Origin: an uncultured Schlesneria sp.
GTDB lineage: Bacteria > Planctomycetota > Planctomycetia > Planctomycetales > Planctomycetaceae
NCBI GenBank assembly: GCA_903840265.1
Contig: CAIMFH010000187.1
Coordinates: forward strand, 12,554-76,553
Direction: 5' to 3'
Length of the DNA stretch: 64,000 nt
In this document: one piece after another, positions 5,685 through 19,008 of the stretch
Layout: each line of letters opens with the position of its first letter
Numbering within the stretch: position 1 is the stretch's first letter
Notes under the pieces: generated by a model
Databases searched by the model: none
Told to the model about the DNA's origin: nothing
Seen by the model: only the letters and a program-made list of their open reading frames with translations
Program-made: the position numbers and the translations under genes

Positions 5685-5879
5685 ATGTTAGTACTGACCC
5701 GCGGTTTGAAACAGCAGATCTTGATCGATGGTGGGCTGATCACAGTCACCGTGCTCGATATTCATGGTGGCCGAGTGCGACTCGGTATCGAAGCCCCGTC
5801 GGATGTCGCTGTGCGACGTAAAGAACTGATCCAGGGAATCCCGCAACCTGATGCAGTAATTAGTGTTGTACACGACTAA
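5685..5879 (+). CDS. csrA: Carbon storage regulator CsrA/RsmA family protein
   Basis: MLVLTR..ITVTVLDIHGGRVRLGIEAPSDVAVRRKEL. AAGGAGG RBS lies upstream of ATG 5685. Confidence 0.88.
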   Translation: MLVLTRGLKQQILIDGGLITVTVLDIHGGRVRLGIEAPSDVAVRRKELIQGIPQPDAVISVVHD

Positions 5880-16093: not shown

Positions 16094-16207
16094 GAAGTAG
16101 CGAGCATGCAACATCGCGAGTGAAAAGGCCACTTCGGCCTCAGCGTGTGTTGAAATCAAGCGATAGTTCGAGTGTTTCGAACGGTACTCTTTTTGGGAGG
16201 ATTCACA

Positions 16208-16675
16208 ATGTTGACCGCTCTGCCTAATCGGTTGTCGGCCATGTTCGCCGATCCAGTCCAAGCTGTGTTCCGTGAATTTGAACGGGAGTTTCCTTGGGCT
16301 GAAAATGGTCCCTCACCGCGAAACGTAGCGCCGCTGTCGATGTGGGATGATGGCACCTCTGTTCACCTGGAGATGGACGTGCCCGGCATTCCCCTCGCCG
16401 ATCTTGACGTGACCGTCGAGAAAGGTGTGTTGAAGATCCGCGGAGAACGCAAAGCTCGGGAAGGTTCGCCCGAGGCTCTTCGCGAAGAACGGTTCTTCGG
16501 ACAGTTCGAACGGAATCTCGCCTTACCCGACTGGCTAGATTCAACCGCGATCGACGCCACACTCAACGATGGCGTCCTCAACATCAAGCTCTCGCGGAAG
16601 TCCGAAGCCGAGCGACAGCGGATTTCCATTCGTCAACAGAACGACGAAGGGAAGCGTCTGGAAGCTGCTAGCTAG
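16208..16675 (+). CDS. Hsp20/alpha-crystallin small heat shock protein
   Basis: LEMDVPGI..DVTVEKGVLKIRGER, ERFFGQFERNLALP and ATLNDGVLNIKL. GGAGG RBS. Confidence 0.95.
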   Translation: MLTALPNRLSAMFADPVQAVFREFEREFPWAENGPSPRNVAPLSMWDDGTSVHLEMDVPGIPLADLDVTVEKGVLKIRGERKAREGSPEALREERFFGQFERNLALPDWLDSTAIDATLNDGVLNIKLSRKSEAERQRISIRQQNDEGKRLEAAS

Positions 16676-16783: not shown

Positions 16784-16858
16784 AAAAGGTGCCAGGAACC
16801 ATTTGTGGAAATTGAGCCAACCCCAGAAAATCCTAAATTGGTTCCTGGCAGCTTTTTT
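16784..16858. repeat. Inverted-repeat element (REP/MITE-like)
   Basis: AAAAGGTGCCAGGAACCATTT ... AAATTGGTTCCTGGCAGCTTTT, imperfect IR of about 21 bp around a spacer of about 30 nt. Confidence 0.65.
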
Positions 16859-17461
16859 GGTCCCGCCGGCTCAAGTTGACTGCCTCAGTGGTGGCGGGGC
16901 AGGGTGGGTGCCTTCGAGATGCTGCATGGCGGCGTGTTCGGCGACTGCCATCGCATCATCCATACTTCGCAACAAATCATATTTCACGCCGGGTACCACG
17001 GGCGGCGGCTTTGAGCCGCCAGTGTCTTGTCGGTGTGGCGAAGAGGTTCGGCCGTTAGCGCCTGCTTGTGATTGCAAAGGTGTGCGCCCTTATTCGCACC
17101 ACCTGCCGCGACTAAATCGCTCTGTTGATCTAAGCCAAAGTTCATCACCGTGACTCAGGGCCACGGTCAGAGATGAATTCGCGAATTCATCGGAATCGCG
17201 ACGAATGCGATCTGTCACAAAACATCCACTTTTTTGAGGAAAACAGCCAAAAACAGGCCCGTTTTGTCCCCCAATGTCAAAAATTGTCCTGGGGTGTCAA
17301 AAACTGTCAGTGACAGTCGGACTCGCATGCGAGCCCCGCCCGCAAGTGACGAGACATTTCACGGAAAATGGCAAAATACCCAAAACACCGTCTAGCTCCA
17401 CTCACGCAAGATATGGCATAACGAACATCGACCACGTACTGAAAATCAGTGGACCGTAACC

Positions 17462-17515
17462 AACGGCCACACGTGTCGACCCCCGAAATCGGGGTCAACA
17501 TGTGTGGCCGTTTTT
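17462..17515 (+). terminator. Long hairpin with T-run (terminator/attenuator-like)
   Basis: AACGGCCACACGTGTCGACCCC-CGAAATC-GGGGTCAACATGTGTGGCCGTT-TTT. Confidence 0.65.
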
Positions 17516-17660
17516 CGTAGGAGGCGGATCGATGTGTCAGTGCCACACTGTCAATTCTCAAAATCTCGCTAGACATCTGGTGACAAAATCGCACCCCCCC
17601 CAAAAAACCTGCCGTGGACTGACAAATTCTGCCATTTCGTAATGTTCGAGGCGGCGAGTT

Positions 17661-17690: not shown

Positions 17691-17795
17691 GACCTTCATA
17701 TGCCTCCCTCATCACTAGGAAAAACTGTGAGCAAATTCCAAAAAGATGTGAAATAGGGGATTGATCGAGTCACCCGTTTCATGGCACAAGAACAT

Positions 17796-18012
17796 CACAA
17801 CCTGGGATTGAGCCAGCCCTCATCAATTTGAGGCCTGGTCAGTTCCAAGCCCGCAAGCGGGAAGCTCTTTGACAATTGAATGCGGATCGCAACCACGACA
17901 CTCCCGGTGGAATGAGAGGTTGTGTCACACACAGCCCGATGATGTGGGTACCACGATTTTGGAGTCCTCGACAAGGTCGTGCCTTCTTCGGGATGCACAA
18001 AACGCACAACCT
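17796..18012 (+). ncRNA. Candidate structured non-coding RNA with boxA-like motif
   Basis: Nested hairpin at 17804-17846, CCCGCAAGCGGG hairpin, boxA-like GCTCTTTGACAA (17864-17875) and C-UUCG-G hairpin (17979-17998). CACAACCT occurs twice and is complementary to AGGTTGTG. Confidence 0.4.
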
Positions 18013-18054
18013 ATTCTGTCGCTTGGCCCTTCGCCCTCGCCCCTCAGCGCGCCT

Positions 18055-19008
18055 TTACGACTTCGCAGCCGGTTCATTGATGAACTTCTCGTGCTCGGCG
18101 AGTTCCGCGACCTTTCGCTTTAACGAGCGCCGCAAGGTCGCCCACTGCGATGTGGCTGTGCGAAACAAATCGGCCGCTTCGATCAGGATGACGGCTTCGT
18201 CGACACCGTGCCCCATCGCGCGTTCCACTTCTAAGATCGCGGGGACCACGTTGTGCTTCAGGTGGTTGACGCAGCCTTGTGCCAGACGCTCGATTTCATC
18301 GGCCAGTTGCTTAATGCACTTGCGGTCTTCATACCGTTCGTCATCACGCAACTCACGCGTACAGATCGCCGCCACCGAAGTCACCGTGGATGTCATCGCG
18401 TTGAGCCGACCCATTTGATTGTTGCGGTTCTTCGCCTCCACCAACTGCTGTTCGGCCTTCTCCAATCCGGCGCGGGCCTTTTCGAAGTTGGGCCGAATTT
18501 CGAGTGCCTTGTTGAAATTCATGATCGCCATCTGCAGATTGCCCATATCAACGTAGACGTTGCCCAGGTTCTGATACGCTTCGGCCATGTTGGGGGCAAG
18601 TTTGATGGCTTCTTTATACGCCGAGACAGCCATGGCGTTTTGCTTGAGTTTTCGTTGAGCGATCCCCAGATTGTAAAAGGACTCGGCACACTTCTTATTG
18701 CGCGTGATCGCCTTTCGCAGGTAATCCGCCGCCTTCATGTGTTCACCAATCCGGTTGTGGATCGCGCCGAGGTTGGTCAGGTGCCGACCTTCCATGGGCT
18801 GCAATAACGTCAGTCGCAGGAACTCGGCAATCGCTGTCGGATAGTCTTCGATCATGTAAGCGCAGGTCGCCAAGCCTTCGTGAGCTTCGCAGCAATCGGG
18901 ATCGAGCGCGATCGCTTGTGCAAACAGCTCCTTCGCAGCGGCCAGATCTCGCTTGTGCAATTGATCTCGCGCGCGGTCGCACAGTTGGACGACGTCTGAT
19001 CCGCTCAT
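18055..19008 (-). CDS. Tetratricopeptide repeat protein
   Basis: Repeated TPR units (EAHEGLATC, HLTNLGAIH, ESFYNLGIAQ, EAYQNLGNVY) followed by a helical C-terminal domain. Confidence 0.9.
   Translation of the reverse strand: MSGSDVVQLCDRARDQLHKRDLAAAKELFAQAIALDPDCCEAHEGLATCAYMIEDYPTAIAEFLRLTLLQPMEGRHLTNLGAIHNRIGEHMKAADYLRKAITRNKKCAESFYNLGIAQRKLKQNAMAVSAYKEAIKLAPNMAEAYQNLGNVYVDMGNLQMAIMNFNKALEIRPNFEKARAGLEKAEQQLVEAKNRNNQMGRLNAMTSTVTSVAAICTRELRDDERYEDRKCIKQLADEIERLAQGCVNHLKHNVVPAILEVERAMGHGVDEAVILIEAADLFRTATSQWATLRRSLKRKVAELAEHEKFINEPAAKS

Follow-up and report, generated by a model that had tools for sequence, protein, structure and literature searches.

The non-coding segment at positions 17796-18012 of the window, which is the whole 64,000-nt stretch of DNA analysed, is one probably decaying copy of a gene-free cassette, with an ordinary REP hairpin landed beside it. 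The cassette is called C; it contains a promoter module, P, and a repeat unit, U. The Schlesneria assembly under study is designated G000, and genomes of its relatives carry the same kind of number. The best explanation, to which we give an even chance, is that C, free of genes, is a satellite of a dispersed element with a catalytically dead DUF3987 (primase-partner helicase) gene at its centre; U would be an iteron-like site and boxA a read-through signal. The kinds of element met in C are already known, namely mosaic repeat, iteron-type site and boxA leader, and the REP half is ordinary. The cassette itself is apparently undescribed: the incompletely covered literature on Planctomycete boxA, REPs and Schlesneria repeats yielded no description of it.

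Composition of the segment and of cassette C

The closest relatives of G000 are named Schlesneria, and G000 groups with Schlesneria. The segment lies in a gap of 1.38 kb between an HSP20 gene and a convergent TPR gene. The gap is a mosaic of the genome-wide repeats A, B, C and D, with the following features:

16172..16675, + strand: HSP20 gene, upstream neighbour (ORF and neighbour listing)
16987..17045, + strand: REP of a second GTRC-tagged type (A, about 40 copies; genome-wide repeat search)
17207..17650, + strand: element B (47 copies), with a TGTCA-rich left end, a P-related promoter at 17414-17422 and an attenuator/terminator hairpin at 17451-17516
17715..17936, + strand: cassette C, shortened decayed copy, left boundary diffuse (genome-wide repeat search)
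17761..17790, + strand: promoter-like module P, reading TTGATC, 18 nt, TGG-CACAAG (extended -10 without the -7 T), A-tracts upstream
17803..17847, + strand: hairpin 1 (MFE fold; no covariation)
17849..17861, + strand: GC hairpin in boxB position (95% of cells paired; conserved by sequence, without covariation)
17864..17876, + strand: boxA, the same as the 16S rRNA leader boxA of G000 (16 copies)
17908..17913, + strand: second -10 position, TGGAAT here (TAnnnT in 32/34 copies, ahead of the first U; TAGGAT in the G011 orthologue)
17917..17936, + strand: single unit U, GGTTGTGTCA plus a partly complementary tail (sequence comparison of copies)
17946..17985, + strand: REP D of a GTGC/GTAC-tagged family (105 copies; at this locus specific to this species)
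17979..18012, + strand: non-conserved tail with a C-UUCG-G loop and the second octamer (orthologous loci, REP copies, ensemble fold)
18015..18050, + strand: low-complexity C/T-rich repeat that closes many such mosaics (genome-wide repeat comparison)
18055..19008, - strand: TPR gene, convergent neighbour outside C (ORF and neighbour listing)

The segment joins two repeat families, the 3' two-thirds of C and the whole of REP D. The first-pass annotation had treated it as one structured non-coding unit; this was not borne out, the two families being unrelated. The description as non-coding and serving no neighbouring gene was supported, and the segment does point into the 3' end of the TPR gene. 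The individual motifs were located as described: the octamer CACAACCT at 17796 and 18005 with its complement at 17917, the boxA-like 13-mer, the GC hairpin, the stacked hairpin (present in the MFE fold) and CTTCGG at 17986. The boxA call was supported. The motif has the same sequence as boxA in the two 16S leaders of G000, and it is present in 16 of the 16 copies of C found by promoter profile alone. This is the unbiased figure, as boxA positions were otherwise located by pattern.

G000 has about 19 copies of C, 16 with the promoter module and three partial. The order is A-tracts, a TTG-hexamer, 18 nt, TGG-CACAAG, a hairpin, the GC hairpin, boxA, TAnnnT and unit U, the last usually in tandem. 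Long copies have a GGAG-tagged REP and a second TTTGACAA between boxA and TAnnnT. Promoter spacers of 16-18 nt are enriched in G000. The predicted transcription start from P is near 17796-17798. The -7 T is missing from P in every copy, and P may be weak or silent in C. A sigma-54 reading of TGGCAC was rejected for lack of a GC at the -12 spacing in most copies. The TTGACA of boxA as a -35 box for the second -10 was also rejected, with a spacing of 21-36 nt that is not an enriched spacer.

Hairpin 1 is swapped for other REP-type hairpins in other copies of C. The distance from P to boxA is 97-104 nt in most copies, whichever hairpin intervenes. The boxA core is 99% conserved, against 81% over the next 20 nt (16 copies). 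The hairpins are conserved in sequence without covariation. Coding potential of C was not found: there is no conserved ORF, and a gene call over one array is the repeat itself. The terminal inverted repeats and target duplication expected of a MITE were not found in C.

U arrays have a period of 19-26 nt and comprise up to 17 units or more; each locus has a homogeneous array, often at a contig end. The ACAA/TTGT core is common to boxA, P and U. C has ACAA cores that face U, and a clear AT-rich centre is not seen in it. In place of a Nus site, or in addition to one, boxA may represent a binding site in inverted orientation. The window's copy has a single U and a 17-nt deletion after hairpin 1. 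The orthologue in G028 has a tandem U array; the orthologue in G011 is free of the deletion and has an intact second -10, with hairpin 1 split by an insertion. The window's copy, which is convergent with a gene, is probably decaying.

REP D is an ordinary REP and a true member of this class. Copies are intergenic in 103 of 105 cases, 17 are paired, and 89 of 105 have the GTGC tag. D is an imperfect palindrome whose stem folds better on the tagged strand, and its tag is GTGC/GTAC, not the canonical GTAG. Three inverted D pairs flank an open 206-aa RAYT frame in G005; a similar locus is found in G029 and a remnant in G000. The G005 locus (L261, G005:C12) is a REPtron with GTGC-tagged REPs, a tag not found in the REP surveys examined. 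In G011 and G028 the orthologous locus has the TPR gene and C, the U array or both, but not D.

Some other repeats in the gap deserve mention. Element B is 400-1545 bp long, with TGTCA-rich ends, a promoter and a terminator hairpin. One variant has a terminase-small-subunit-like HTH gene (B-related loci L062:2650-3024, L300 and L301). B-related promoter-attenuator units lie ahead of a Mu-like portal gene, with a scaffolding-like gene further downstream. A 26-bp inverted repeat at 16784-16856, 3' of the HSP20 gene, has no paralogue in the genome.

A multicopy DUF3987 gene and the boxA of cassette C

Tracing of U led to a DUF3987 gene at at least 10 loci in G000 (contigs C155, C149, C156, C90, C26, C145/C47, C35, C167, C122, C45, C51 and C69; L306-L314). 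Each gene copy lies behind a promoter and an attenuator hairpin and is followed by repeat mosaics. The promoter reads TTGACT, 16 nt, TGG-CACAAT, then the attenuator hairpin, and forms a series with the promoters of B and C. boxA-U modules follow some of the gene copies. Cassette C and the DUF3987 gene have in common the extended -10 box, the boxA-U module, the U motif and the same narrow distribution. No contig was found to carry both a C copy and a dead DUF3987 gene. Close subfamily matches number 13, 2, 4 and 3 in G000, G011, G016 and G028, with at most 52% identity elsewhere; this co-distribution with U rests on one clade of close kin plus G027.

DUF3987 is a helicase family of mobile replicons, and the activity of an intact relative needs Walker A and Walker B (PMC11724360). 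The subfamily in G000 has lost the Walker A lysine, has a D to Q exchange in Walker B and has no primase. Judged from these residues, the protein is catalytically dead. The paralogues have dN/dS values of 0.06-0.17 at a dS of about 0.4, by which the multicopy gene is under purifying selection. The C-terminus is predicted as a winged helix, with pLDDT >90 over the core. The nearest folds are all winged-helix regulators, none reaching E 0.001, and a PDB sequence search with this domain gave nothing significant.

Every full copy of the gene contains four in-frame U sites. All 12 of their 12 silent positions are invariant in seven paralogues, against a background of 39-60% (P ~5e-5). This points to selection on the DNA motif. 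In the intact primase-fused relatives of G001, G008 and G017, an inverted repeat at the end of the gene contains a U-like motif. G027 encodes three dead DUF3987 genes with 52% identity and a different motif at the gene ends. That motif has 27 copies in G027 and at most two elsewhere, and it also occurs in boxA elements that continue like C. G027 is partly an independent parallel of the protein/motif pair. A separate long DUF3987 gene of G000 (G000:C67:13442-16100) has an N-terminal domain, and at its end there are short repeats of its own that occur in either orientation; it is possibly an intact satellite replicon.

The winged helix of SaPI Rep binds iterons at the 3' end of its gene (PMC9371898). 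The DUF3987 units resemble the SaPI/PICI and P4-type origins in a helicase-family gene with a winged-helix tail and in a short motif repeated at the gene end (PMC9371898). The inverted repeat in the intact primase-fused relatives is like the SaPI origin layout. Unlike in SaPI and P4, the gene in G000 lacks Walker A/B and primase, has at least 10 dispersed copies and carries the motif in frame; U is also arrayed in gene-free cassettes, and neither an AT-rich ori centre nor an integrase is present. A motif at the 3' end of a winged-helix helicase-family gene was found for the DUF3987 units, not for C itself. By analogy with SaPI Rep, U may be an iteron-like DNA site bound by the DUF3987 C-terminal winged helix. 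The varying U periods (19-26 nt), which differ from those of helically phased iterons, speak against this. Binding of U by the winged helix and derivation of C from the DUF3987 unit have about even chances. A multicopy dead DUF3987 gene with a cognate repeat was not found in the literature, as far as it was covered.

If the link between U and the protein holds, it would give an origin and a candidate binding protein to one of many unexplained promoter-bearing intergenic repeat families. It would describe a mobile-element helicase that lost catalysis and kept a DNA-binding tail, while its origin repeat turned into dispersed arrays. The pair would consist of one small winged-helix domain and one 10-mer, with the G027 pair as a second protein and motif.

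boxA of E. coli loads NusB:S10 and blocks Rho, and boxA of Bacillus binds NusB (PMC13753749). boxA sites outside rRNA are known (PMC5725501). The boxA of C has G/C at position 8 versus A in the consensus, which is gammaproteobacterial. Both boxA variants of C are also present inside tRNA arrays of the sister species G027 (arrays with internal boxA sites at L348 and L350). G000 encodes NusB and Rho; a second, weaker Rho homologue is also encoded. C resembles an rRNA or tRNA operon leader (PMC5725501, PMC13753749) in sharing the boxA of the G000 16S leaders, in the hairpin just upstream and the untranslated sequence downstream, and in the presence of NusB and Rho. It differs from such a leader by its multicopy, dispersed nature, by the lack of a stable RNA gene after boxA and by the promoter, which ahead of boxA consists of TTG, 18 nt and an extended TG without the -7 T. 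Likely, boxA is functional and intact C copies are transcribed. C would be weakly transcribed, and NusB/NusE loaded at boxA would let RNA polymerase pass through the long, untranslated mosaic of repeats that follows. Such read-through would explain why most C copies point into a same-strand gene.

The literature search found no study of Nus antitermination for the phylum, and the roughly 19 boxA sites of C occur naturally outside operons for stable RNA. Downstream of integron integrases in G003 and G020 (L104, L105 and L114) there are also non-coding, repeat-rich stretches with strong sigma-70 promoters, two of them with a boxA-like motif.

Distribution and spread of cassette C

Among the Schlesneria genomes searched, C was found only in G000, G011, G016 and G028, close kin with 97-98% DnaE identity. 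These four have 40-85 copies of U versus at most six in 29 other Schlesneria, and 16-29 boxA copies versus 0-14 elsewhere. boxB-boxA pattern matches outside Schlesneria were discarded as chance, lying mostly in coding sequence. P-motif pattern scans of metagenome and viral contigs gave no matches; they are not exhaustive, as C is present on a JGI contig where P is a variant.

A same-strand gene lies downstream of 15/19 C copies (p 0.02, with six contig-starting arrays counted). The orientation of C is unrelated to the local strand majority. A replication-strand explanation was rejected, with no relation to either strand majority or skew. A common downstream gene was sought and not found: the neighbours include dnaE, thrS, crcB, kinases and TPR proteins, among others. 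C is not needed at dnaE, downstream of one copy, because dnaE has its own conserved promoter.

Where two species have a C copy next to the same gene, these copies are often not closest relatives: their identity is 64-79%, whereas copies from other loci reach up to 93%. One copy is bordered by flanks from two separate C loci of G000. C-bearing gaps are seldom syntenic, based on small numbers with many flanks unmapped. Two comparisons of filled and empty sites revealed blocks of 650-800 bp with diffuse ends, at which no target duplication, terminal repeat, linked recombinase or core dinucleotide was found. U arrays may grow and shrink locally, and copies may be exchanged or recombine between loci. 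Candidate routes to new sites are recombination between shared repeats and RAYT action. In practice, U/C arrays interrupt assemblies, coincide with breaks in synteny and are targets for IS110 insertion.

Alternative readings

C may be a functionless DNA mosaic of the BIME/BOX type, in which RAYT and recombination copied REP-type hairpins, a captured boxA fragment and U together, and U, a short linker resembling a REP, spread into the DUF3987 gene as well. We regard this as rather unlikely, though a serious possibility. C is studded with REP modules among many repeat types, one strand of the U units folds into small G-T-rich hairpins, there are several RAYT genes, C has no covariation and tandem REPs have been described (PMC3733652). 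C shares with BIME/REPIN mosaics and REP-RAYT systems a modular intergenic architecture with a middle unit of variable copy number, and D is a true REP (PMC8266576, PMC6006769, PMC3733652). Several observations speak against it. Silent sites of U are invariant inside the DUF3987 gene, boxA is far more conserved than its flank, TAnnnT is conserved, C has an orientation bias and neither U nor C was found to flank a RAYT gene. Unlike BIME/REPIN, C has promoter boxes and boxA, the D tag is GTGC/GTAC and not GTAG, and U is tied to the DUF3987 gene. Pneumococcal BOX elements are also modular intergenic mosaics in which the middle unit varies in copy number.

A further, unlikely reading is a domesticated system derived from a satellite replicon. 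The dead multicopy DUF3987 protein would be kept by selection as a sequence-specific DNA binder, with its iteron-like sites placed in gene-free, boxA-antiterminated cassettes before unrelated genes, and protein and motif would co-evolve, as in the G000 clade compared with G027. If true, this would constitute a dispersed regulatory or chromosome-organising network, or a trans-acting factor that spreads cassettes.

CsrB and RsmZ are decoy RNAs with a promoter followed by tandem small hairpins with GGA, and the CsrA-type consensus is ANGGA. C resembles them in its promoter followed by tandem small hairpins, many with GGA. The second -10 would start an RNA at the first unit, and the GGA-loop hairpins would titrate CsrA proteins (or act as anti-Shine-Dalgarno sequences). 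G000 has 12 CsrA paralogues, and most types of U unit include GGA and form the better fold on the + strand. Nevertheless, this function is improbable. Several unit types lack GGA, the ANGGA consensus is absent, the invariant part of U is not GGA and U is conserved inside a coding gene. Unlike CsrB/RsmZ, C has no terminator after its arrays and is spread over about 19 loci. One of the CsrA paralogues is encoded in the window at about 5685-5840 (G000:C187:18238-18393).

Some copies of C are close to integrons. One is located 150 bp behind the sole full integron integrase of G000, two follow an attI and an intI stub, and 5/19 C and 8/47 B copies are within 3 kb of attC, compared to 4% expected. 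C could thus be part of integron platforms, as the Pc/attI region or an ORF-less cassette. This is very unlikely, since the real attI and attC array lie on the other side of intI and are unlike U, intI genes of other Schlesneria lack C, and 14/19 C copies, including the window's, have no attC nearby. C as attI or attC was largely refuted once the real sites were located, with no match to host attI/attC or to the array-head position. The excess of C and B near attC, which comes from few independent events, may reflect shared insertion hot spots or deletions. G000 has one complete integron and about 10 attC clusters without integrase, in total 64 attC sites; many clusters have B or C at the head of the array, in the place expected for intI (contigs C188, C24, C25, C22, C82, C85, C129, C147, C190, C19 and C74).

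The alternative pairing proposed in the first-pass annotation would make C a conserved structured small RNA with a switch. The segment's folding z-score of -2.5 relative to shuffles on the + strand (-1.8 on the - strand), boxA and the promoter-like boxes fit an RNA. We see little chance for it, since covariation was no better than in shuffles (score 0.072 vs 0.075, 334/500; 26 copies, 5' half through boxA), hairpin 1 is replaceable and neither the window nor six paralogues matched Rfam at gathering and E-value thresholds. Complementarity of both octamers to 17917 is present, but in the ensemble octamer 1 pairs at 0.07 versus 0.89 for octamer 2. The octamer triad occurred in 7/2000 shuffles versus 69/2028 (3.4%) real intergenic windows of G000. 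Only this copy has the switch partner. Neither the second octamer nor the UUCG loop is found at the orthologous loci of G011 and G028, and the proposed switch needs a species-specific REP insertion because D is absent there. The C-UUCG-G stem, taken as a mark of stable RNA structure, contains a C/T mismatch, overlaps the REP stem and has an ensemble pairing probability of about 0; this loop follows only 1/105 REP D copies. The UUCG loop and the second octamer are local accidents.

The reading as an orphan module for an IS110/IS1111 bridge or seek RNA, comparable to ssr9/MITEPpu9 of Pseudomonas putida, is hardly tenable. Solo promoter-bearing non-coding modules among REPs have a precedent in MITEPpu9/ssr9 of the IS110 element ISPpu9 (PMC12288879), a few IS110 elements exist in sister genomes, and CACAA/TGACA stretches in C are complementary to U. 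Unlike MITEPpu9/ssr9, C has no terminal boxes in common with IS110 and no cognate transposase. The DEDD and Tnp20 domains (PF01548 and PF02371) were not found in the 99.98%-complete G000 assembly, in which a repeated IS could be unassembled. The ends of four sister-genome IS110s have no significant similarity to C (best E 0.08), filled and empty sites have no common terminal boxes or core dinucleotide, and a covarying two-loop structure was not found in C (5' half through boxA, 26 copies). The IS110s of sister genomes are inserted inside a D-type REP at a CT core, beside an A-type REP, at attC (two) and in a REP interrupting a C copy; the repeats are hence targets. The insertion at the CT core (L287:847-2100, G011:C755) is a REP-targeting IS110-family element in a planctomycete, and the elements at attC sites in G028 and G012 (L289 and L290) are of the IS1111 type.
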